From Bacilli bacterium (GTDB lineage: Bacteria; Bacillota_I; Bacilli_A; RFN20; CAG-826): a stretch of DNA of 64,000 bases. The stretch spans positions 10,286 to 74,285 of the forward strand of contig JAVWAV010000003.1 in the NCBI GenBank assembly GCA_036649855.1, written 5' to 3'. Positions 10,795 to 25,612 of the stretch are shown here, one piece after another. Positions within the stretch are counted from its first letter, which is position 1. Every line of letters starts with the position of its first letter. The notes under the pieces were generated by a model, which worked only from the letters and a program-made list of their open reading frames with translations, had not been told where the DNA came from and did no database searches. Made by a program: the position numbers and the translations under genes.

Positions 10795-11916
10795 TTATAC
10801 TTGTGCTGCAGTGAAATCCCAATATGTTACTGCACCAAGATCAGTTGAATTAACATTATACATTAATTGAATATCTGATACTTGACCTACAAAATAAGTT
10901 GTATAACACAATTTATCTGTATTAGGACCTGTGTAGTATACTTGAACTGGATAAGGGATATCCATTCTTACATAGTCTTCATTGAACTTGTAAGCAACAA
11001 TACGACCTGCACTGTTTGTTCCTGCACCATTCAATCTTGAACGACCTCTGATTTTCAACTTGTAGTTATCCATACCTGCTGCTCTTGCTTCATCCAATCC
11101 AACATTGAATTCCATTAAGAAATTACGAAGTGTATTAGAGTAAAGAGTAGAGAATCTGCTTGACAATTCAGTTGCATCATTTGTAGGAAGCAAGAATGTA
11201 TCTGGTAACAAATCAATGTTATTGTTTGTATTAATTAAATAGAATGATAAAATTCCGTTTAATGTAGATACAATTTCTGCATCTGTCATTTGTGCGAATC
11301 CTGTTGCAGTTGCATCTGCAGTTCCACGAGGAATAACAGTTGTTACAACATTTGTTGAAGTGAACAATCCATCATTTCCGTTTGTTCCTTCGTATGCAAT
11401 TTTATCACAGAATAGATCCCAACCTGCTAAGATTGCATCTTTATAAATTGCTTCAATTGATTTTGCAAAGTTAACTTTTTCAAGTTTATCAACTTCTATG
11501 AATTTGATTTCGTAAGCAATTTCAAAATTGTGAACATTTACTTTCTTGTGATTTAGTTTAGCATTTACTTTTGGTATTAAGTTGACATTGTTACCTGTCA
11601 AGTTTGCATCTGTTGGCATACCAATCCAATCTACAGTGAAGAAGTCAACATAGTCAACCATTCCACCACCAACTTTAATAGGAACATCTTGTGCGTATGT
11701 TGTATTAAATTTTGGTTCGTAAACTTTTTCATGAAGTTTACTCAATTCTGTCATAACGAAAGCGAAGTTTGCGTCATGAATGTTTGTTTTACCTAGACTT
11801 TTATATAGTCCTGGATTTGCGTCTCTTAATGAGATACCTTTCTTGCATTCTGCTGCATCGTGAGCAATAGAATTAGCAGAATCTCTAAGAGATATTTTTG
11901 TCATTATATTTTCCAT
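10795..11916 (-). CDS. major capsid protein (HK97-fold, DUF2184-like)
   Basis: 373 aa. It follows a DUF2213-like protease/scaffold gene and a small decoration-like gene, and is followed by hairpins. Confidence 0.75.
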   Translation of the reverse strand: MENIMTKISLRDSANSIAHDAAECKKGISLRDANPGLYKSLGKTNIHDANFAFVMTELSKLHEKVYEPKFNTTYAQDVPIKVGGGMVDYVDFFTVDWIGMPTDANLTGNNVNLIPKVNAKLNHKKVNVHNFEIAYEIKFIEVDKLEKVNFAKSIEAIYKDAILAGWDLFCDKIAYEGTNGNDGLFTSTNVVTTVIPRGTADATATGFAQMTDAEIVSTLNGILSFYLINTNNNIDLLPDTFLLPTNDATELSSRFSTLYSNTLRNFLMEFNVGLDEARAAGMDNYKLKIRGRSRLNGAGTNSAGRIVAYKFNEDYVRMDIPYPVQVYYTGPNTDKLCYTTYFVGQVSDIQLMYNVNSTDLGAVTYWDFTAAQV

Positions 11917-12422: not shown

Positions 12423-13493
12423 TTATTTACTTGCTGCTCTATTATATCTATCTTGAAAACTCTTTTCAATTGAAGATGCTGTATTTACTTTTTGAGCATC
12501 TGTCATTTTAGCGAATTTTGAATAGACAGTTTTAGAGTCCTTTGTTGTTACTGTGGTTTCCTCAGAAATTTCATCTGCGTCTAAGAGTTCACCACCACAA
12601 TCTTCTGTTTCTGTTGCAACTTCTTCAGTGATATCTTCATCACCAACAACCTCTTCTTCAGTTTTCACTTCTATTGGTTGTTCTGGAGCAACTTCTTCTT
12701 TAACTGCTGGTTCCTCGTCTGCCTCTTTAACAGTCAACATGTCGATAACTTGCATTAATAGTGTTTTAATTTCTGCTAATGTAGGTTCTTCATCTTGTTC
12801 TGCTACAGGAGCATCTTCAGATGCTTGAGGAATGTCTTCTTTAACTTCAACATCTTCAGGAATTTCTTCCACTTCAAAGATATCTTCGTCAAATAATCTT
12901 ACTTTTTTCTTTGACATTTTTGTTCCTCCTAACTTATTGATCTTTTCTGCACTATCTCTTATGGTAGCACATCCTGCTCGACCATCTTCTACCAATGCCA
13001 AATGATTTCCACGAATTTTAGTCATATAGTATTTGCCACCCTTATCAACAATTACAGTGTCATATCCTAATGATAATTCTCGTTTGTCACCTGATAGAAT
13101 TTCTTCAATGGTGTCTGCATCTGTTACAACAAGATCACAAATCAAACAATCTTTCGTGTTATCATCTTCACCTCGTCTAACATTATACATGTATCCCTTA
13201 GCAAGATCTTTGTAGTTAACTAGAGATACATTTTCTTGAGGATGGTCATCAACAAATGGTTTGTTCTCAAACGATGCAATTGATGTTGGATCAAATACTT
13301 CGTCGTCAGTCCTGAAGACTTTAACTATTTTATTTCTGTCGCCACCCTCAATTATTTCGCTTTCCAAGTAATCATAAATACCTGTTCTCGCTATAATACA
13401 ATCACGACAAATAAGTTGACCATTACTATCTTTCCATATTCTGTCAGATATTTTAATACCATATGTCGTTCTTGTGCTATCTAATAATCGCAT
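12423..13493 (-). CDS. prohead protease/scaffold protein (DUF2213-like) with acidic C-terminal half
   Basis: The N-terminal half (..ELSLGYD..IRGNHLALVEDGRAGCATIRDS) resembles the DUF2213 family. The C-terminal half is E/D/V-rich. Confidence 0.6.
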   Translation of the reverse strand: MRLLDSTRTTYGIKISDRIWKDSNGQLICRDCIIARTGIYDYLESEIIEGGDRNKIVKVFRTDDEVFDPTSIASFENKPFVDDHPQENVSLVNYKDLAKGYMYNVRRGEDDNTKDCLICDLVVTDADTIEEILSGDKRELSLGYDTVIVDKGGKYYMTKIRGNHLALVEDGRAGCATIRDSAEKINKLGGTKMSKKKVRLFDEDIFEVEEIPEDVEVKEDIPQASEDAPVAEQDEEPTLAEIKTLLMQVIDMLTVKEADEEPAVKEEVAPEQPIEVKTEEEVVGDEDITEEVATETEDCGGELLDADEISEETTVTTKDSKTVYSKFAKMTDAQKVNTASSIEKSFQDRYNRAASK

Positions 13494-14261: not shown

Positions 14262-15230
14262 TTATCCCAACAATTTTATTAATTCTGTCTCGTCGGAAAT
14301 AAATAATTTTCCATATTGTTTAAGAAATGCTGTTTTGGTATATGTTGCTATTCTTCCAGATTGAATATTCACAAGTTCTTTTCCGTTCTTTGATTTAGTA
14401 TTTATAATTAAATCTTCCGCAACTCTTACTGGAAAATGAATATCATCTAGATCAAAAATTGCAAGAGGAATACATCTACAATTTGGAAATTCTCCACAAT
14501 GTCCATGCATACTAGATACACTTCCCTGTTGTGTTGTATAATTAAATGTTACAGCATCATTCCAAAATACTAAAACATTATCTAACATTTGATGAGAGTC
14601 TCTCACTCTTGCATCTCCACTAGTTGACCACATATATGCTTTCACTCCAACTGATCTGGATCTTACTTCTGTGATTGCCGTATTTACTTTTGCACTTTCA
14701 GTTCTTACAATTAGTTTTGCTCTGTTTCCAAGTCTTTCATATAACTCACTTTCAATTTCTGTTCCCCTGAATGCTTTTCCTTCCATATATCCTTTACGGA
14801 GAAGTTTATATACATCCTTAGGTAAATTTTTTATTAATGACATATTATATTCAAACTTATCTAATAATGGATCTACAAGTTTTTGTGATTTTATTAGATT
14901 TGTCATTGCTTTATTAAATTTTTTATTATCTTCTTTCTTCTTTTTTAATTGATCTAACCCTGATGTAACTGCTTTAATTATTTCAGTAAATCCTTCATTG
15001 TTTCGTTTCAATACTTTACTTCTAAGACTTTTTATATATTTCGATAATTCTTTTGTATTTATGTTTTCAATTATTTCATCAACTTCATTAATAGTCATAG
15101 CATTTCTTATTTTTTTACCAATACTATTTTTTACATCAGAAATAAACATGTTTACAAATACATCTTCTGCTGAAGATTTTAATTTCATCTTTTTTCTCAA
15201 TTTCTTTTCTTGACTTTTGGTTAGTTTCAT
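14262..15230 (-). CDS. head morphogenesis protein, MuF/SPP1 gp7 family
   Basis: Motif GDARVRDSHQMLDN...FPNCRCIPL. The start is moved to the ATG at 15230 (MKLTKSQ), which has a terminator, TATAAT and RBS just upstream. Confidence 0.8.
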   Translation of the reverse strand: MKLTKSQEKKLRKKMKLKSSAEDVFVNMFISDVKNSIGKKIRNAMTINEVDEIIENINTKELSKYIKSLRSKVLKRNNEGFTEIIKAVTSGLDQLKKKKEDNKKFNKAMTNLIKSQKLVDPLLDKFEYNMSLIKNLPKDVYKLLRKGYMEGKAFRGTEIESELYERLGNRAKLIVRTESAKVNTAITEVRSRSVGVKAYMWSTSGDARVRDSHQMLDNVLVFWNDAVTFNYTTQQGSVSSMHGHCGEFPNCRCIPLAIFDLDDIHFPVRVAEDLIINTKSKNGKELVNIQSGRIATYTKTAFLKQYGKLFISDETELIKLLG

Positions 15231-15261
15231 TAAATAAAGTCTCCTATCATAATTTATTATA

Positions 15262-15297
15262 CAAAAATTCCTCTCGTTTTTTACAGTGAGAGGAATT
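15262..15297 (-). terminator. rho-independent terminator
   Basis: 10-bp stem AATTCCTCTC/GAGAGGAATT followed by TTTT on the minus strand, then a TATAAT-like box. Confidence 0.6.
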
Positions 15298-15301
15298 TTG
15301 A

Positions 15302-16891
15302 TCATTTTAATATATTTATAACTTTTTGTTTTAATTCTTCGATATCTTTTGAATACACCTTTTCATGAACTTCTTGTTTTTTAAGGTCTACATTAGGATT
15401 TTCATGTCTTCCTGTTAAAGTTTTATCGATAAATCCATAATAATTGTATTTACTTCCCAATGTTACAACAGTTGTAAAATACCAAATTCTATCCCATGGT
15501 TTATAAAAATATGTTATATTTTCTCCATTCCAATTTCTTATCTTTGAAACAAGTTCGTCAACTGAATTTACTTTAATACTTTCATCATGTAATTCTTCTC
15601 TGGATTCTTTCATTTCTTCAAAATCTTGTTCTATTCCATTCTGAATTGAATTTAATGTTTCTTTTGAAAATACTGATTTGTCTTCTATTTCAACATAATA
15701 TTTATATCCATTGGTGTTATACTGATATTTATTTTTAACTAACCAATCTTCAAATTTTTCTGCATCATTGGTATTTCTAAATGTAAATCCTATATATCCC
15801 TGAGAATCTTTATTTTCAGAACCATTACAATTCTTTGCAACATTTCTAAGTTCTATTGGATCGAAGTCTTTAACTATTTTATTAGTAGTTTCTTTTATAA
15901 TTTCTCCATCGTATCCAAGTCCTCTATTATTTTTCAATAAATATTCTGCTCTTTCTTTTGTTAGATTATCAACTTTGAAATCACCTGTCGTTCCATGCAT
16001 TATATATGTCCAATTATTTTCTTCACTAGAATCTTTTATTGTTTGTTTTGTCTTAGATAGTAATTCTCTTAATGCTTGTATACCTTTTTCTGCTGTATCT
16101 GCTGTTCTAGAACCTATTCTAGTAAACTTGCCGTCTCTAAATACAATATTACATTCAATAATATACCAACCTTGTTTTACATTATCAAAATCTGGTTCGA
16201 AGTTTAGATTGATATGAATTTTAGCAAGTTCTGATTTTCCTGTTGAACTATTAATGTAAGTTGACTGTTTTAACGGAGTTTCGAATTCGACAAATACTGC
16301 TTTATCACTTCTATTTTTATCAATATTTCTCATTAATTCTGAACATTTAACAAGAATTTCATCTCTGCTTGCAAGATTGTCGTTTATGTCCTTATCATTT
16401 ACCACTATCTTCCAAACTTTCATCACTCCTAGATTTCCTCTATTATTTTTATAGATTTCATCTGAACCTGACATATCATAAAAATTATCTAAGTTATTAA
16501 CATAATTGTCTAATTGACTTCTACTTGAAAATTTCTTTGTTTCTAACAATGCTCCAGATTTATTATATATCTTTGCAACTAATACAGGTTCTAAATCTTT
16601 TACTTTTGTATCTATTATACCTGTTGAATCTGCTCCAAAATAATTTTCAAGAACACTCTTTAATTTATTCTTAGATCCTCTCAATACTAATTGATATTCA
16701 TTCCCTACTTTTTCTGCTACTGCACTTACTCCATATGCTCTTGCTTCTGCTATATCTTGTTTCAACATCTTATCGTCTTTCGAAGGATATCCTCCTAAAA
16801 TGTAGTGAGCATCTTTAACTTTGGTAACTGCATCAATAAACGATATTGAGTCAACAATAAATACTTTGTTTTTATAACTTACCTTAAACAT
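15302..16891 (-). CDS. head-module protein of unknown function carrying the N-terminal shared module
   Basis: The N-terminus MFKVSYKNKVFIVDSISFIDAVTKVKDA matches the module seen in five other ORFs. Confidence 0.6.
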   Translation of the reverse strand: MFKVSYKNKVFIVDSISFIDAVTKVKDAHYILGGYPSKDDKMLKQDIAEARAYGVSAVAEKVGNEYQLVLRGSKNKLKSVLENYFGADSTGIIDTKVKDLEPVLVAKIYNKSGALLETKKFSSRSQLDNYVNNLDNFYDMSGSDEIYKNNRGNLGVMKVWKIVVNDKDINDNLASRDEILVKCSELMRNIDKNRSDKAVFVEFETPLKQSTYINSSTGKSELAKIHINLNFEPDFDNVKQGWYIIECNIVFRDGKFTRIGSRTADTAEKGIQALRELLSKTKQTIKDSSEENNWTYIMHGTTGDFKVDNLTKERAEYLLKNNRGLGYDGEIIKETTNKIVKDFDPIELRNVAKNCNGSENKDSQGYIGFTFRNTNDAEKFEDWLVKNKYQYNTNGYKYYVEIEDKSVFSKETLNSIQNGIEQDFEEMKESREELHDESIKVNSVDELVSKIRNWNGENITYFYKPWDRIWYFTTVVTLGSKYNYYGFIDKTLTGRHENPNVDLKKQEVHEKVYSKDIEELKQKVINILK

Positions 16892-16895
16892 TAAT

Positions 16896-17495
16896 TTATT
16901 CTCCTATATCGAATATTTCTGGATGATCCTTTGCGAATTTCTTTGCTAATAAAACTGTTGCTGCACATAATTGAACGCATTCTACAAATGTGTTCTTTGT
17001 AGGAGTTTTTCCCTCAAATTCATCATTTATTTCATGAACAATTTCACCCAATTCTTCTGTTAAAACTGCTACCCATCTATCATAAGTATTATTTACTGTT
17101 TCTGGATGTGCTTTTGTAACGATTCTCTTTATTTCCTCAAGAATTGCATTAAAGATGTCAGAAACAGTAATAATATTATCATTATCTGAGTCAACTGCTT
17201 TTACATACTGTTTATCAAAAAATTGATTTAACTTTGTTTCTGCATCCTCTTGAGAAGTTGCAATTACATTGTATTTTTTACCGTCTTTTTTAATCTTAAA
17301 CTTACGATATTTTATTTCTTTAGTATTTTGTTTAGGTTCGTCTAAATCGCTCTCTAAAGGTAAATCTAATGGTTTTTCAACCACTTCTGCAACTTCTTCT
17401 ACAGGAGTTTCTGTTTCTTCTAATTTAGTTTCTGACACATCTTCTTGTGTGTCTTTTACATCTTCTTTGAATACCTTTCTATCAAATATATTCAT
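16896..17495 (-). CDS. acidic N-terminus + shared module + MazG-like (all-alpha NTP pyrophosphohydrolase-like) C-terminal domain
   Basis: Module KYRKFKIKKDGKKYNVIATSQEDAETKLNQF. The C-terminal LTEELGEIVHEINDE resembles the MazG EExxE motif; the second acidic motif is degenerate. Confidence 0.4.
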   Translation of the reverse strand: MNIFDRKVFKEDVKDTQEDVSETKLEETETPVEEVAEVVEKPLDLPLESDLDEPKQNTKEIKYRKFKIKKDGKKYNVIATSQEDAETKLNQFFDKQYVKAVDSDNDNIITVSDIFNAILEEIKRIVTKAHPETVNNTYDRWVAVLTEELGEIVHEINDEFEGKTPTKNTFVECVQLCAATVLLAKKFAKDHPEIFDIGE

Positions 17496-17511: not shown

Positions 17512-18984
17512 CTATTTGATTATGTTTCTAACTTTATTTTCAGCATCTTGTTTAGATGTTGCCTTAACTATAAACTTTCTATCTCCTACTTTAACATTGT
17601 AGTTCTTAACAGTTTTTACTCTGTCATATTCAGAAATATTTAATGTTGAAGTTGATGTTATTGTTGCATCTGATAACATTTTTTCTAATTTTTCTAGTGG
17701 TAAGATAAGATTTGTTGTTCCGTTGTCAAGTGAAAGTGTAACATCGCCTTTCTTAATTTTAACAACAGTTAATTGTGCATTACCATACTTTTCTTCCCAT
17801 CTTAGTTTACTTCCTAAAACTACTTTCCCAATATCGTTTACAGAGTCTGAGTCTTTTATTGCTGAGTCTCTGACTGATATTCCCATTTCTTTAAGTGCTT
17901 TTCTTCCTGCTGAAGTAATATGGTCGTCATCAACATCGTATTTATCATACCAACTTGAGATTTCTCCTGAATTTGTTGTAATCCTTAATAAGTCCCATAT
18001 AAGTCTTGTCTCAAGAACTTTATATCCACCTTTGGATTTTAATTGACTCACATAATCATTAATTTTATCCTTCCCAAGTTTATTGAATTTTTCACTGACA
18101 ACTTTATTTAAATCTTCTGATTTATAGTCTCTTATCGCTGAGTCGTTAACATTCCAAATTATTTTTCCATTCTTGTAAATCAATTTAGGATTTGTAAAGT
18201 ATTCAAAAACACTGTCTTTAGCGTCTTTATCTGAAGTGACATTCATTTGTTTTACATCACCCTCTTCAGACTCTATCTCATAAGTACTGTCTTTAACATT
18301 AGATGGACTTGCTGTTGCTTTATCATCTACATATAAATAATTATTATGAGGATATTGATGGAAAGTAGGACCAATCTTTTGTCCTTCTTTTGCAAGTTCT
18401 TCAAGTGAACCAATAGTTACAGATGGAGTAATTAAAAATTTCCATTTTCCATTCTCTTGTCCTGCATATTGAAGTCCTTTCTCTCTTGCCTTTGCAATAA
18501 ATTCTTTAATTTGAGGATACTGTATTGTATCTTCTACTTTCTTTGAATCTGTTGTTGCTGTTGCCATTTTATTCACTCCTCCTAACATATCTAATCCTTT
18601 ATTTAATATGTTCTCTAAAATTCCATCATTCTCTTTAATATCACATACAGAGCATAAAGGATCATTTACTGTTGCATTGTTTGCAGGAATAACATCAGAA
18701 TCTTCTGTATTATTCTTTGCAAGTGTATTATCAGATTCTATTGCTCCTGTTGTCGTAGTTTTGAATATTGAATTTAATATATCAATATGTTCTATTTCAT
18801 CATTTCGTATTCTTTCGAGTTTAGATCTATCTTCTTCAGATAGATCTGCTCTCTTTAATGCTTTATCATAACCATCAATTGCTTCTATTTCATCTGAAAT
18901 TAAAAATCCAAGATCATCTCTCTTTTCAGTAATTTGAGGAGTTTCTTCCTTACCTGTTTCTAAAACTTTTTCGTCTTTTAACAT
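17512..18984 (-). CDS. head-module protein with N-terminal encapsulated-ferritin-like domain and C-terminal shared module
   Basis: aa 25-75, LISDEIEAIDGYDKAL..IRNDEIEHIDIL, resemble the EncFtn/rubrerythrin-like ExxEA...EExEH pattern. The C-terminus is YNVKVGDRKFIVKATSKQDAENKVRNIIK. Confidence 0.5.
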   Translation of the reverse strand: MLKDEKVLETGKEETPQITEKRDDLGFLISDEIEAIDGYDKALKRADLSEEDRSKLERIRNDEIEHIDILNSIFKTTTTGAIESDNTLAKNNTEDSDVIPANNATVNDPLCSVCDIKENDGILENILNKGLDMLGGVNKMATATTDSKKVEDTIQYPQIKEFIAKAREKGLQYAGQENGKWKFLITPSVTIGSLEELAKEGQKIGPTFHQYPHNNYLYVDDKATASPSNVKDSTYEIESEEGDVKQMNVTSDKDAKDSVFEYFTNPKLIYKNGKIIWNVNDSAIRDYKSEDLNKVVSEKFNKLGKDKINDYVSQLKSKGGYKVLETRLIWDLLRITTNSGEISSWYDKYDVDDDHITSAGRKALKEMGISVRDSAIKDSDSVNDIGKVVLGSKLRWEEKYGNAQLTVVKIKKGDVTLSLDNGTTNLILPLEKLEKMLSDATITSTSTLNISEYDRVKTVKNYNVKVGDRKFIVKATSKQDAENKVRNIIK

Positions 18985-20720: not shown

Positions 20721-22394
20721 TTATTTTCTTTTCTTCGAGTCTCTTAGTGCTGCTCTAATTATATTTTCTTTAATCTCGTTGTAATCGTCCTGTTTTATCT
20801 CTTTCTTTATAGGTTTGACAGTGGTTTCTATTTCTTCTGGTTGTTGTTCGAATTCCTCATTAAAGTCCTCTGTAAGACTGTTTTCGTCCTCTCCTGGACT
20901 CTCTGCTGCTAATTTATCTGCTTGTTTTGCTTTATCTTCATCTAACTTAGATATTTTAGTTCCAAATCCTGTTTTCTTTACTGCTGATTGAATTTCTTGT
21001 AATGCTGTTTCATGTGTTATTAATTCATTATCTAATAATGTTGATATATTATTTACTAAATTTGTTAAATAACTTTGTCTGTTTTCATCTGTATCATCAA
21101 GCATACTTACAAATTCGTAAGATAAATCTTGAGGAACTTCTAATCCACAACATTTAAATATTACAGGGAGTAATTTATCTAAAACAGGTCTAATTTCTTC
21201 ATCCTGCTTGCCTTGAATGTTATTGTCATATATTTTTAATTCAATAGGTTTATCTCCATTAAGTCCTGCTCTATTTGTTCCAAATAATATTACTTCTGGC
21301 ATTTCTGCTGCACCTGAAACAATATCCTTTTGACCTGTTAAGATATCTGACAATCCACTGAATGAATATTCTTGTTTTTCGTATTCATCTTGCTTATCCA
21401 TAAATACTAATTTATTTGAAGTTCTATAATTATTTAATGCTGCCATTTGTGCTGCAAACATTTGAGATGATTGAGGATTTCCAGCACTTAATCCACTCAT
21501 AGTATTTCGCATTCCGTCTAATTTTACAATTTCTAGTAATGCTTTATTTAATAAGGATGCTATTGCATTTTTAGTATTCTCATGATTCATTAAATCTTGC
21601 AAAACATGCTCTAATTCACTTATTCCCCAACCTTGTAATCTTTGTTCTGTAATTCTAGGAGATTTTCTATTTGTAAATCTCAATACTCTTGAATAATGAA
21701 CTTTTTGTGCTGAGTCTTCTGTTCCATCTATAAAAAATGAATAATATTTTGGTAATCCAAATTCTGCACTTCTATAGTCTGTTACAACTTCACTTGACCA
21801 ACTTAATCCATACCACCTATCTGTTGTTAAGAAATTAATCTTAGAACCTGCCTTTATGTTTTTAAGTTTCAATGGTTTAGACAAATCTTCTTCTCCGTCA
21901 TCAACCATTATCAAAGATGCTGCTCCACCGAATATTCTTGCTTGTTTTGTAGCATATATTAATCTACTCTTTAATCTGTTATATAATGTGTAAATCTTAG
22001 TTAAGTCTGCATCAACTAGCGAGTCACAATTAATATCTATACCATTTGACCACATATCTCTTGCTGGAATATCTACTATTTTTCTAAATACCCAACAACC
22101 ATTATATATCGCCATTAATTCATTTCTTCTAAATGTTATAAGATCATTATCGAAATATGCTCCATTAAGCATAACATTAGATACACCTGTTTGCATTTCT
22201 GGATTATTAAATGAGCCATCTTTAATTCTTCTTGATCCAAATCCTTCTTGAACTGCAGAATCAAATAATCTTGCTTTTTCTCCTATACTTTTAGAATCCT
22301 GAGAAGAACCTATAAATGCAGATACTCCAACATTATCGTTATTTGACTTAAAACTTCCATCTATAAATGATTGTAATGTTGTATCATAATTCAT
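20721..22394 (-). CDS. portal protein (DUF1073-like)
   Basis: 557 aa with an acidic C-terminus; the N-terminal region is typical of DUF1073 portals. Confidence 0.75.
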   Translation of the reverse strand: MNYDTTLQSFIDGSFKSNNDNVGVSAFIGSSQDSKSIGEKARLFDSAVQEGFGSRRIKDGSFNNPEMQTGVSNVMLNGAYFDNDLITFRRNELMAIYNGCWVFRKIVDIPARDMWSNGIDINCDSLVDADLTKIYTLYNRLKSRLIYATKQARIFGGAASLIMVDDGEEDLSKPLKLKNIKAGSKINFLTTDRWYGLSWSSEVVTDYRSAEFGLPKYYSFFIDGTEDSAQKVHYSRVLRFTNRKSPRITEQRLQGWGISELEHVLQDLMNHENTKNAIASLLNKALLEIVKLDGMRNTMSGLSAGNPQSSQMFAAQMAALNNYRTSNKLVFMDKQDEYEKQEYSFSGLSDILTGQKDIVSGAAEMPEVILFGTNRAGLNGDKPIELKIYDNNIQGKQDEEIRPVLDKLLPVIFKCCGLEVPQDLSYEFVSMLDDTDENRQSYLTNLVNNISTLLDNELITHETALQEIQSAVKKTGFGTKISKLDEDKAKQADKLAAESPGEDENSLTEDFNEEFEQQPEEIETTVKPIKKEIKQDDYNEIKENIIRAALRDSKKRK

Positions 22395-22402
22395 TTATTG
22401 TT

Positions 22403-22741
22403 CTACCTCCTATTTGTTATGTCTGAATTCCTTTTTGCTATACTAGTAATTTCTGAACCTATACCAATTAAATCTGCTCCAATGACTCCTAATGTCTTTA
22501 GAGAACTTTCTAAAACAGAAGGATTTCTTGAAGTTTGTAACATTTTCTTTTGCTCAAGAATGTTTAATGCTATCCCTCCAAGAATTCCTGCTAAATCTCC
22601 CACTCCATCTTGAATATCACTTTCAAATATAGAATCTTTATTCTCTAGATATACTTTTAATTTTGCTATTGCTGCATCTTCACATTCTGCTCTTACTTTA
22701 TAACATTTTTCTTTATATTTTACTTTATAAAAACTATACAT
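22403..22741 (-). CDS. small protein with N-terminal shared module and G-rich hydrophobic C-terminal half
   Basis: Start placed at the ATG at 22741 (MYSFYKVKYKEKCYKVRAECEDAAIAKLK), directly after the stop of the upstream small ORF. Confidence 0.55.
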   Translation of the reverse strand: MYSFYKVKYKEKCYKVRAECEDAAIAKLKVYLENKDSIFESDIQDGVGDLAGILGGIALNILEQKKMLQTSRNPSVLESSLKTLGVIGADLIGIGSEITSIAKRNSDITNRR

Positions 22742-22915: not shown

Positions 22916-24094
22916 CTATCTTACTTCACCTGTAATCTCGACAACTCTTGCACCATCTTGTGTTTCTAGTATAACATAAATAGGAGTAAATTTTCTTGCC
23001 TGTTTATCTGCTACTGAAATATTTGATACTGGAACAGAGAATACATAAAATCCTTGTGGCAATGTTTCTCCTGACTTAATTACATTATATTTTACACCAT
23101 TATATGTGATTGACAAGTCTTCTCCACTATACTGTGCTACAAGATTTAAATATCCATTAGTTTTATATCTTTGTAATTGACTATTTATTGCTGCCTTAAT
23201 GTTACTGATTCCTTGTTCTGTCAAGTATTGTTTTCCTAACATCCTTTGTAGCACTGAATATGTTATATCTCTTTCAACTGCGATTGCACCGAAATCTGTA
23301 TGAATTGATATATTTTCTATTGTTGCTAGGTTTCCACCTAGGTTTACAACTTGACTTCCTACTGAGTCAATTAAGTTATAATATCCTTCATCATTTGGAT
23401 TATTTACTAAATTATTAAAGACTGATTGTGTTACATCTTCAGAAGCACTATCTTCTGTTATACCTGTTAAATTTTCACTTGTGAAAGCATAATCTTTAAT
23501 TGTATCCGTTCCATCCAAATTTATTTGTGAAAAATATGCACCAACTAATAGTGCTGCATCAATTAACACTGTATTATATGTTTTTGTGCAATATTTTATT
23601 ATTGCCATTGCATCTGTCATACTATTATCTTCCAAAAATGTTGTTGAATTTGTAGTCAACAGTAATCTTACTTTTTCTGGAGATGTTGTCTCATTACAAT
23701 ATTCTGAAATTGATTGTAAAACTTCTGATGTATAACCTGATACTCCAATTAATTGATTAGAAATTGCAACATAAATAAAATCATCTGATATATTTCTACA
23801 CTCTCCTATAAGAGTTGTAAAAGAAGCAAGAGTGTATGTTTGAGGACTAACTACAAGTAATTTAGAACCTCCGTTGTAAAAATAATTTTTCATACTTACA
23901 ACTGCTGCATCATTTCCAGATACTTGTGTATCAATTTGTGCTACATCTGTAATTAACAATTTTGAAACAGATGCTGCTGATTCATCCACCAAAGTTACTG
24001 GTGCAAAGTATACTGTTGTTTCAAAGTCTCCTAAAACTTTTCCAGAACTCTTAATATCAAAATCAACTGTTACTATATTTCTTACTGATATCAT
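22916..24094 (-). CDS. tail sheath-like protein (DUF3383-like)
   Basis: 392 aa, with N- and C-terminal beta-rich ends resembling small sheath proteins. It is paired with a 146-aa tube-like gene. Confidence 0.5.
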   Translation of the reverse strand: MISVRNIVTVDFDIKSSGKVLGDFETTVYFAPVTLVDESAASVSKLLITDVAQIDTQVSGNDAAVVSMKNYFYNGGSKLLVVSPQTYTLASFTTLIGECRNISDDFIYVAISNQLIGVSGYTSEVLQSISEYCNETTSPEKVRLLLTTNSTTFLEDNSMTDAMAIIKYCTKTYNTVLIDAALLVGAYFSQINLDGTDTIKDYAFTSENLTGITEDSASEDVTQSVFNNLVNNPNDEGYYNLIDSVGSQVVNLGGNLATIENISIHTDFGAIAVERDITYSVLQRMLGKQYLTEQGISNIKAAINSQLQRYKTNGYLNLVAQYSGEDLSITYNGVKYNVIKSGETLPQGFYVFSVPVSNISVADKQARKFTPIYVILETQDGARVVEITGEVR

Positions 24095-24108
24095 TTTCTA
24101 TATTCCTC

Positions 24109-24549
24109 CTATACATTCTTCTCTTCTGAGATAATTTCACCTGAAACAAATTCAAATTCTCTTGTTCCTGCTGTCTCACCTACAGTATTTGCTGGAATTC
24201 TTACTGGTAGACATCCATTACATGTTGCTGCAATATTTCCAAGTGAATCTGTTATTGTGATTTTGGATAATGCCAATGATGGATTTGCCCTTGCCCACAA
24301 ACAAAATTCAGTAAGTTCTGCAATATGAAAAGATGTTTGCTTAAATAATACTTTTACTTTTCCTTGTTTTGAACCATTGAAGTTTCCAACATATCCACCA
24401 TCTGGAGAAGAATCCATTGAATACATATCCTTTTCGTATTCATACCCTACTGAACCTAGTAACTTTCCTGCTCCTCCAATTGTAATCATTGGATGATTGT
24501 CGTTCTCGATTACTACTGTTACTGTGGTTAAACTAAATACTTTTGCCAT
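24109..24549 (-). CDS. tail tube-like protein (DUF3277-like)
   Basis: 146 aa, adjacent to the sheath-like gene. Confidence 0.45.
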   Translation of the reverse strand: MAKVFSLTTVTVVIENDNHPMITIGGAGKLLGSVGYEYEKDMYSMDSSPDGGYVGNFNGSKQGKVKVLFKQTSFHIAELTEFCLWARANPSLALSKITITDSLGNIAATCNGCLPVRIPANTVGETAGTREFEFVSGEIISEEKNV

Positions 24550-24562
24550 TTTAATATTCCTC

Positions 24563-25276
24563 CTACATCTTTATAGAATTAAATTCTTTTTCTGCCTCTT
24601 GAACATACTTGCTTATTGCATTTGTATACTGAGGTAAACCTGCTACTGATTTCTTTCTTTCCGATAAAAGTCTTTTAAAATCTTCTGCTAATCTTTCTGC
24701 TCTACTTTTATCACCTTTTGATAACGAGTCTTTTATCCAACGAATATAATCAAATAAATCTTCTATACCTATTGCGATAATGTTTGTTCCTGGAACTGCT
24801 ATGTCTATTCCATAATCTTTTATTGCTGAATCATGTATACCTAATTTTCTTTTCATATCTAATATGAGACCATACATTCCTGCTATAGCAGTAGAACTCT
24901 TCACTTCATCATAATGTTGTTCAAAGAATTTAATTGCTTCTTGAAGTTCTTTTTCATTTCTTGCTGCTCTCATTTTATTTCTAATATCATCAGCAATGTT
25001 ATCATTTATTGCTGAATCATTATATGATTGTGCAAATTTTTCATATTCACCTTTATTGTATAGAACTTTTTCTAATGGAATACCTGTCTTCTTGCAATAT
25101 TCATCGATTGCCTTCCATTTCTTTTCTCCCATCTCTCTTCTTATGTCATCAAATTCTGACATGATTGAATCTGCAAGTTTTCTTGTTTTCGCATTCTTTA
25201 ATTTCTTAACTGCTTCTACTTCTGAACTAGCATCTACAAGAAATAATTTATTTTCTGACTTTACTTTATATTTCAT
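24563..25276 (-). CDS. head-module protein of unknown function with N-terminal shared module
   Basis: N-terminus MKYKVKSENKLFLVDASSEVEAVKKLKNA; contains a DSAIKD motif. Confidence 0.6.
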   Translation of the reverse strand: MKYKVKSENKLFLVDASSEVEAVKKLKNAKTRKLADSIMSEFDDIRREMGEKKWKAIDEYCKKTGIPLEKVLYNKGEYEKFAQSYNDSAINDNIADDIRNKMRAARNEKELQEAIKFFEQHYDEVKSSTAIAGMYGLILDMKRKLGIHDSAIKDYGIDIAVPGTNIIAIGIEDLFDYIRWIKDSLSKGDKSRAERLAEDFKRLLSERKKSVAGLPQYTNAISKYVQEAEKEFNSIKM

Positions 25277-25282
25277 TTTGTT

Positions 25283-25612
25283 TTATATCTCCTTATCAAT
25301 TTTTACCATACTTCCTATTAATTTAGATTGTTCTACTCCTGTGGTAACTAGTGACTCTATTATTTTATGTGTTCTATTGTATGCACTATCCCAATCTAAA
25401 TCTTTTGAAAATCTTCTAATTTCTGAAACATTTTTCTCTAATTCTTTAGATAATTTTAACAAAGAATTTATAGCATTGTTTACTATTTCTGTATTTATAT
25501 CATTTGGTAATTGTCCAAATTTATGTCTAGCAATACTTGCTGCATTTTCTAAATTCAATGCTTCAATTACTTCAATTGTTCCATCTGCCTTTGTTACTCT
25601 AAATTTCTTCAT
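25283..25612 (-). CDS. small protein with N-terminal shared module
   Basis: MKKFRVTKADGTIEVIEALNLENAASIARHKF. The start is moved to the ATG at 25612, which has GGAG 8 nt upstream. Confidence 0.55.
   Translation of the reverse strand: MKKFRVTKADGTIEVIEALNLENAASIARHKFGQLPNDINTEIVNNAINSLLKLSKELEKNVSEIRRFSKDLDWDSAYNRTHKIIESLVTTGVEQSKLIGSMVKIDKEI

Follow-up and report, generated by a model that had tools for sequence, protein, structure and literature searches.

The stretch of DNA considered here (the window) comprises 64,000 nucleotides of contig JAVWAV010000003.1 from a Bacilli bacterium (assembly GCA_036649855.1, positions 10,286 to 74,285), and it contains the head module of a contractile-tailed phage. 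Within this module, an open reading frame (ORF) on the minus strand encodes a mosaic protein of 490 amino acids whose N-terminal segment resembles one half of a ferritin-like domain, referred to below as the half-ferritin. The minus-strand genes run from a terminase with a LAGLIDADG intein through tube and sheath, portal, a Listeria-Bacteroides-repeat protein and a membrane protein to the half-ferritin gene. This gene is followed by two mosaic ORFs, a MuF gene, a sigma-like gene, a DUF2213 gene, a cement protein gene and the PF09950 major capsid protein gene. A first-pass annotation, made from the letters of the DNA alone, had placed the half-ferritin gene in a phage head module, and the flanking portal, MuF, DUF2213 and major capsid protein genes bear this out. 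The position of the gene is syntenic in two related loci (L001 and L002), and a 99-kb contig with the homologue P0009 shares the arrangement.

Translation of the ORF reproduced the segment (residues 25-75, nucleotides 18760-18912) in which the same annotation had seen a likeness to encapsulated ferritins. The segment is real, but the domain around it is slightly larger than first reported. AlphaFold2 (AF2) predicts the N-terminal segment to be a two-helix hairpin (predicted local distance difference test score, pLDDT, 88.7), and the full-length model agrees, placing the hairpin at residues 16-78. The full-length model has an overall pLDDT of 53.8, with confident modules at residues 16-78, ~150-205, ~390-445 and ~460-489 and low-confidence linkers between them. 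Residues 79-147, directly after the hairpin, are disordered in this model, and they are followed by unrelated modules up to the C-terminus (...DAENKVRNIIK). Comparison with homologues of the 490-residue protein reveals modules that are shuffled, inserted and permuted; as modelled, the protein consists of small folded modules strung on disordered linkers. A family hidden Markov model (HMM) matches residues 22-78 (E=3e-25) as the sole copy in the window and detects no second ferritin half anywhere in it. A di-metal site within a four-helix bundle would therefore require two identical chains to pair, as happens in the encapsulated ferritin EncFtn and the designed protein DF1.

The hairpin carries the residues by which ferritin-like proteins are recognized, namely a glutamate on helix 1 (E32), a tyrosine seven residues beyond it (Y39) and an ExxH motif on helix 2 (E63 to H66). 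The bare pattern E-x6-Y-x18-30-ExxH is unconvincing on its own, because the six-frame translation of the window contains it twice, the other occurrence being due to chance. The segment rises above chance because it is conserved across homologues. All 13 homologues of the full protein retain it (13/13), and a profile built from ten copies (A1) retrieved 96 representative relatives at E<1e-3, 23 of them at E<1e-10, in an exhaustive search of 1.84 billion representative proteins. Many of these relatives are 56-120 amino acids long; in larger proteins, the domain sits at either end. In an alignment of 83 diverse copies of the domain (A3), the only invariant columns are E32, Y39, E63 and H66.

Homology to the ferritin-like superfamily, which the first-pass annotation had proposed from the motif, emerges at the level of the family. 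For the window protein alone, the top Pfam matches are Ferritin_2 (E=0.045) and EncFtn-like PF22277 (E=0.062), both sub-threshold, and a phmmer search of the PDB with the 95-residue N-terminus gave only matches at E>0.1, to a di-metal maquette and to a ferritin-like protein of a tardigrade. A single-sequence search with the same 95 residues gave no match in an indexed set of 5.8 billion proteins. The A3 profile, searched against the PDB, matches DFsc (3.9e-11), a bacterioferritin (1.2e-9), NE0167 (4.5e-7), a second bacterioferritin (5.3e-7), EncC (8.3e-6), Rru_A0973 (1e-4), a Dps-like protein (4.8e-4) and EncB (6e-3). Every match at E<0.01 is a di-iron or designed metal-binding helical-bundle protein, and four are EncFtn-type cargo proteins. 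Likewise, a Pfam scan of 92 relatives gave matches to Ferritin (23), EncFtn-like (22, best 9.5e-9), DUF2383 (16), Ferritin_2 (13), Rubrerythrin (9) and COQ7 (5), all ferritin-like families (accessions matched: PF00210, PF22277, PF09537, PF13668 and PF02915).

The predicted ligands also fall where they should. Alignment of A3 by hhalign to the core of Rru_A0973 (identical to 5da5_A residues 9-89; probability 92.9%, E 3.8e-7) pairs D31, E32, E34, Y39, E63 and H66 of the window protein with E31, E32, E34, Y39, E62 and H65. The latter are the ferroxidase-centre and entry-site residues of EncFtn (PMC5012862). The Glu/Glu/His correspondence read from the sequence at first pass thus holds at family level, and at the acidic entry-site pair (E31/E34 in EncFtn) the window protein has D31/E34. 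A Foldseek search of the PDB with the 72-residue hairpin lists chains of EncFtn, EncB, EncC and NE0167 (root-mean-square deviation ~1.2 A, 22-25% identity); it is taken as a sign of consistency only, because the E-values are weak and generic hairpins rank equally. In BFVD, a database of structures predicted for viral proteins, the best match is 'Ferritin-like protein [Myoviridae sp. ctj3P51]' (31% identity). On the strength of the family-profile PDB matches and the ligand correspondence, the domain is judged to be a true ferritin-superfamily half-domain of EncFtn-like architecture, and its homology with an intact ligand set is highly probable.

EncFtn (Rru_A0973, PDB 5da5; PF22277, TIGR04535, NF058679) is likewise a two-helix half-ferritin, and both it and the window protein are encoded next to a gene for an HK97-fold shell. 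Encapsulins and phage capsids share this fold. The EncFtn decamer, whose assembly depends on metal, docks above the five-fold shell pore (PMC5012862). Unlike EncFtn, the window domain is an N-terminal cassette of a mosaic phage protein and lies below all curated thresholds. It also differs in having no C-terminal targeting peptide or shell fusion (by inspection; no targeting-peptide model was run), and the genes alongside are portal, MuF, DUF2213, cement, capsid, terminase, sheath and tube rather than a family-1 encapsulin shell. For these reasons (scores below the cut-offs, no targeting peptide, no encapsulin gene), the sequence comparisons place the domain outside the curated EncFtn families. 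A bona fide encapsulin operon was considered and rejected, there being neither shell gene nor targeting peptide.

Other known proteins come close to the domain as well. The best natural EncFtn-type match to the family profile is NE0167 of Nitrosomonas (PDB 3k6c), a short encapsulin-associated ferritin-like protein (s-FLP), and s-FLP also has no targeting peptide (PMC11202242). However, NE0167 is a free-standing bacterial protein of 95 amino acids, whereas the window domain is a module of a phage structural protein. The top PDB matches are the Due Ferri proteins (DF1 dimer 1ec5/1jm0; single-chain DFsc 2hz8). DF1 is a helix-loop-helix that forms a four-helix bundle with a Glu4His2 di-metal site as a homodimer. 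Since Due Ferri sequences are artificial idealizations of natural di-iron proteins, this likeness indicates a canonical motif, not descent. The halves of rubrerythrin and bacterioferritin (PF02915, PF00210; PDB 9viw, 9qq4) have the same E...ExxH helix pair (E 1e-9 to 5e-7), and by sequence the domain appears about equally close to them and to EncFtn. In those proteins, both halves reside in one chain, whereas the window protein has only one; a full four-helix ferritin was rejected for the ORF, which has no second half. Rubrerythrin is a complete four-helix domain, usually with a rubredoxin-like Cys4 module, which the window protein lacks. Most close homologues (P0003-P0008, P0010-P0016, P0020 and P0024) carry a CxxC-x17-CCxxC zinc ribbon 30-80 residues ahead of the half-ferritin, a combination reminiscent of rubrerythrin, in which Cys4 and di-iron units are paired; no such ribbon occurs in the window protein. 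The ribbon of the homologues is not recognizably rubredoxin, and Pfam gives weak generic zinc-finger matches for it.

Features of the half-ferritin protein and its surroundings in the window
Feature	Position	Strand	Basis or remark
Mosaic head-module protein, 490 aa	17512..18984	-	ORF and translation
Half-ferritin domain, helix-loop-helix (residues 16-78)	18751..18939	-	AF2, family HMM, PDB profile matches, hhalign
E32 codon, predicted metal ligand, helix 1	18889..18891	-	invariant in 83 sequences; aligns with EncFtn E32
Y39 codon, predicted ferroxidase-centre tyrosine	18868..18870	-	invariant; aligns with EncFtn Y39
E63-I-E-H66 codons, ExxH motif, helix 2	18787..18798	-	E63 and H66 invariant; align with EncFtn E62 and H65
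E63 codon	18796-18798	-	
H66 codon	18787-18789	-	
DSAIRD linker (residues 281-286)	18127..18144	-	hexapeptide pattern; candidate protease site or recombination joint
DSAIKD linker (residues 373-378)	17851..17868	-	same hexapeptide bounds module insertions in homologues
Conserved C-terminal module (residues 378-457)	17614..17853	-	invariant or near-invariant columns D378-K457; phmmer domain matches
C-terminal mini-module, 30 aa, beta-hairpin and helix	17518..17610	-	aligns with five further copies in the window
Mini-module copies	17518-17610, 16796-16891, 17217-17309, 22646-22738, 25181-25276, 25517-25612	-	alignment
[AST][ILV][KR]D in capsid protein (residues 29-32)	11821-11832	-	
[AST][ILV][KR]D in capsid protein (residues 9-12)	11881-11892	-	
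[AST][ILV][KR]D at end of DUF2213 domain (residues 178-181)	12951-12962	-	
Portal protein	20721..22394	-	PF06381 E=8e-75; phrog_146
MuF-like minor head protein	14262..15305	-	PF04233 E=1e-11; phrog_324
DUF2213 / Pa193_gp24-family protein, head maturation protease or scaffold	12423..13493	-	PF09979 E=5e-44; phrog_530
Major capsid protein	10795..11916	-	PF09950 E=1.5e-28; phrog_264
Weakly sigma-like ORF, 215 aa	13524-14171	-	between MuF and DUF2213
Multi-pass membrane protein, 190 aa	18997-19569	-	between portal and half-ferritin genes
Listeria-Bacteroides-repeat protein, 363 aa	19586-20677	-	PF09479 E=1.4e-8; between portal and half-ferritin genes
Sheath-like and tube genes	22916-24549	-	DUF3383 / E217_gp31_N; PF11681
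Large terminase, 1019 aa	25910-28969	-	intein-like insert

The genomic setting recurs among relatives. Eleven loci were inspected, amounting to nine distinct contexts, of which seven had recognizable neighbours and two (L005 and L006) did not. All seven of the recognizable contexts are phage structural modules (7/7), and no encapsulin operon or ordinary cellular locus was found among the inspected contexts. For example, P0054 (L003) lies directly after a major head protein gene, and P0072 (L007) and P0060 (L008) directly follow cement and capsid genes, ahead of an E217_gp27-type gene. P0099 (L009) is near a BppU-like baseplate gene, and P0024 (L004), which is fused to DUF2213, lies two genes ahead of a neck gene. 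In four representatives (P0022, P0024, P0026 and P0102), the half-ferritin is an internal cassette of a DUF2213 protein. Virions of phage Pa193 contain its DUF2213 protein gp24, a putative scaffolding protein in which one helical hairpin assembles as a pentamer beneath the five-fold vertices (PMC11456595). Because of the gene order and the DUF2213 fusions, association of the half-ferritin protein with the phage head is plausible and stands at slightly better than even odds. The gene position and the scaffold-family fusions in other phages suggest that the domain may be cargo in the phage head.

Proteins of comparable build are known from phage heads. Pa193 gp24/DUF2213, T4-type internal head proteins and phage polyvalent proteins are head-internal, encoded among head genes and multi-modular, and the window protein likewise has several modules and a place among virion genes. 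None of them has been reported with a ferritin-like domain. The window protein shares no domain with the known polyvalent hubs, and the word 'ferritin' does not occur in the polyvalent-protein survey.

The joints between modules follow a pattern of their own. The six-frame translation of the window has only four matches to the hexapeptide pattern D[SN][ASK][IVLMF][KRNE]D, all of them in ORF 17512-18984 or ORF 24563-25276, and mosaic proteins swap, insert and permute modules at joints of the DSAI[KR]D type. In 13 mosaic proteins, the tripeptide [KR]DS is found 47 times against an expectation of 7.5+-2.6. The stricter motif [AST][ILV][KR]D has 10 of its 12 window occurrences in head-module ORFs; it appears twice within the first 32 residues of the capsid protein, where the motif is conserved in four phages. 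By its sequence distribution, [AST][ILV][KR]D looks like a prohead-protease cleavage site that doubles as a recombination joint. If so, the mosaics would be internal proteins that undergo cleavage, and the half-ferritin would be a cassette set free in the process.

Two modules near the C-terminus may bear on targeting to the head. The module at residues 378-457 is common to the close homologues aligned (AF2 pLDDT ~80) and is a candidate anchor for head incorporation. The 30-residue mini-module that follows corresponds to the shared terminal module of the first-pass annotation, and it occurs six times in the window, always at the N- or C-terminal end of a different head-region ORF. AF2 predicts strands at residues 460-466 and 469-475 and a helix at 478-489 (pLDDT ~85), and the consensus is approximately K-Y-K-V-x3-K-x-F-x-V-x-A-x-S-x2-E-A-x2-K. 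An HMM built from the six copies also matches half-ferritin proteins on unrelated contigs (for example P0084, P0104, P0022 and P0026). The mini-module may be a shared signal for head incorporation or recognition. In related phages, the slot of the mosaic protein gene holds very large mosaic polyproteins with many [KR]DS joints, such as a protein of 1604 amino acids in L001 (12064-16878). In L007 (1-2250), a DUF2213 mosaic protein of 981 amino acids has HNH and NUDIX matches and many [KR]DS joints.

The explanation favoured here, with a probability of roughly 0.6 as a whole, is that of a dimeric half-ferritin with a di-metal site carried into the prohead. Residues 16-78 are a single helix-loop-helix of the ferritin-like di-iron-carboxylate superfamily, and a four-helix bundle would most probably arise when two copies come together in antiparallel orientation. 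The dimer interface would hold two metal ions, probably iron, with E32, E63 and H66 contributed by each chain and Y39 beside the site, in an arrangement like that of EncFtn and the designed Due Ferri dimers. The mosaic protein would be incorporated into the prohead with other internal head proteins and possibly cut at [AST][ILV][KR]D by the prohead protease. One or both of two roles can be envisaged. The domain could act as a ferroxidase- or peroxidase-type redox site that clears Fe(II) or peroxide from around the phage DNA, either within the head or, following ejection, in an oxygen-sensitive Firmicute host, or it could serve as a metal-dependent oligomerization switch for internal head proteins. 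Ferroxidase or peroxidase-type chemistry is a tentative assignment, with the odds somewhat against it.

Several observations weigh against this explanation. The window protein alone scores 13.5 bits against PF22277 (cut-off 27), 21.9 bits against the NCBIfam model EncB_fam NF058679 (E=1.3e-4, cut-off 90) and 21.4 bits against TIGR04535 (E=1.9e-4, cut-off 125). Foldseek E-values are 0.3-1, and the unrelated hairpins PHYL1 and Der p 5 score equally. The domain lacks both a third helix and a targeting peptide, an encapsulin gene is absent from beside it, and the cleavage motif is a statistical pattern only. In the P0008 cluster, lysine replaces E63 (IRNDKIDH), the sole departure from the ligand set among close homologues. 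No relative from a cultured phage was found: searches of 50,697 phage records by tblastn with the whole protein, the family consensus and two relatives gave no match. A scan of IMG/VR gave no confirmed relative, and PHROGs has no family corresponding to the domain. Finally, redox-active iron could harm the densely packed DNA beside it, which makes the site of action uncertain.

Some of the same observations would fit a hairpin that is mainly structural, a helix-turn-helix of the scaffold type as in P22 gp8 or residues 286-326 of Pa193 gp24. Such a hairpin would attach to the inside of the capsid or promote coiled-coil assembly; of its ferritin ancestry no more than a relic would remain, and any metal would serve stability at most, not catalysis. 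Scaffold-type helical hairpins do bind under capsid vertices (PMC11456595), a preprint likens EncFtn-type cargo to phage scaffold hairpins (10.1101/2025.06.18.659913), and EncFtn itself depends on metal for assembly (PMC5012862). The inability of Foldseek to separate the model from generic hairpins and the tolerance of P0008 for an E-to-K change at E63 point the same way. However, the sole invariants over the 83 sequences are three ligands and the ferroxidase tyrosine, a pattern to be expected of a working metal site rather than of a packing interface. Moreover, a scaffold/protease of the DUF2213 family is already encoded by a gene of its own in this phage. A mainly structural hairpin is thus regarded as unlikely, if the most serious of the alternatives.

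A further alternative is an auxiliary antioxidant or iron-handling gene whose product acts, unpackaged, in the infected cytoplasm, with counterparts in the Dps-like proteins and Mn-catalases that some gut and Lactobacillus phages encode. Late co-expression or mosaic recombination alone would then account for the location of the gene in the head module. Phage enzymes of the ferritin superfamily are documented in 'Gratiaviridae' and Lactobacillus plantarum myophages, whose hosts are anaerobic or aerotolerant, and they have been read as oxidative-stress aids for anaerobic hosts (PMC8008677; PMC6669764). Unlike the window protein, these are full-length four-helix proteins described as accessory genes and not mosaic, and the Lactobacillus-phage example lies near DNA-metabolism genes (PMC6669764). 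In contrast, all half-ferritin contexts with recognizable neighbours are structural modules, fusions join the domain to DUF2213 head proteins, and the modules and linkers in the same proteins are found only in head-module ORFs. A cytoplasmic role is accordingly held to be quite improbable. As for a chance resemblance in a charged helical segment unrelated to ferritins, the sub-threshold single-sequence matches and the second, fortuitous occurrence of the bare pattern would allow it, but it is effectively refuted, and its likelihood rendered negligible, by family-profile PDB matches of 4e-11 to 1e-4 whose significant members are di-iron or designed metal-binding helical bundles, by the 93% hhalign probability, by dozens of relatives matching ferritin-clan Pfam models and by four invariant residues that constitute the ligand set.

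The phage half-ferritins belong to a wider and apparently undescribed family, encoded beside or fused to capsid-assembly proteins. No description of such a family was found among the open-access papers searched. Phages figure in a 2024 review of encapsulated ferritin-like proteins with regard to the HK97 fold alone, and the review contains no phage-encoded forms (PMC11202242). Automated pipelines already label such proteins 'ferritin-like' or 'rubrerythrin'. For instance, NCBI labels the window protein 'MAG: ferritin-like domain-containing protein [Bacilli bacterium]', and JGI labels several members 'rubrerythrin'. Two short members pass the Rubrerythrin gathering score.

The finding is of real interest to research on encapsulins and phage assembly, and it is readily testable. 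A 2025 preprint speculates on the origin of encapsulin cargo and on whether phage procapsids could enclose enzymes or cargo-like proteins (10.1101/2025.06.18.659913). With a phage-borne clade of EncFtn-type half-ferritins, both questions could be put directly to the test, using a domain that is small and easy to express. Such a clade would also add metal-redox activity to the repertoire of head-internal or injected phage proteins, a matter relevant to phages of oxygen-sensitive gut Firmicutes. Even if the domain proves to be only a metal-stabilized assembly module, it would be a new building block of phage head polyproteins. The boldest version, in which a functional di-iron centre of the EncFtn-like kind is internal cargo in the heads of tailed phages and the clade bridges head-internal proteins and the ferritin cargo of encapsulins, is improbable on present evidence, and an evolutionary link of the phage half-ferritins to encapsulin cargo is doubtful to a like degree. 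Were it true, a di-iron cargo would be targeted and processed like scaffold and internal proteins, and procapsids would have a biochemical function beyond assembly. Encapsulin-EncFtn systems would then derive from phages with a half-ferritin already in the capsid, or phages would have recaptured the cargo.

Several further genes merit separate mention. The insert in the large terminase is intein-like, with a LAGLIDADG homing-endonuclease domain, and it matches PF14528 and PF05204 at residues ~307-371. The ORF between the MuF and DUF2213 genes has weak similarity to extracytoplasmic function (ECF) sigma factors and helix-turn-helix proteins, and it has a counterpart of 213 amino acids in L001. 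In L005 (2-964), the gene just upstream of a 59-residue half-ferritin (P0040) contains an in-frame stop under translation table 11 ('...NSV*GLGIW...'), which points either to a reassigned stop codon in this phage or to an error in sequencing. The membrane protein and Listeria-Bacteroides-repeat genes are unusual occupants of a head module, and their arrangement is kept in L001 and L002. The sheath-like and tube genes lie between terminase and portal, upstream of the head genes, and L001 has the same order.

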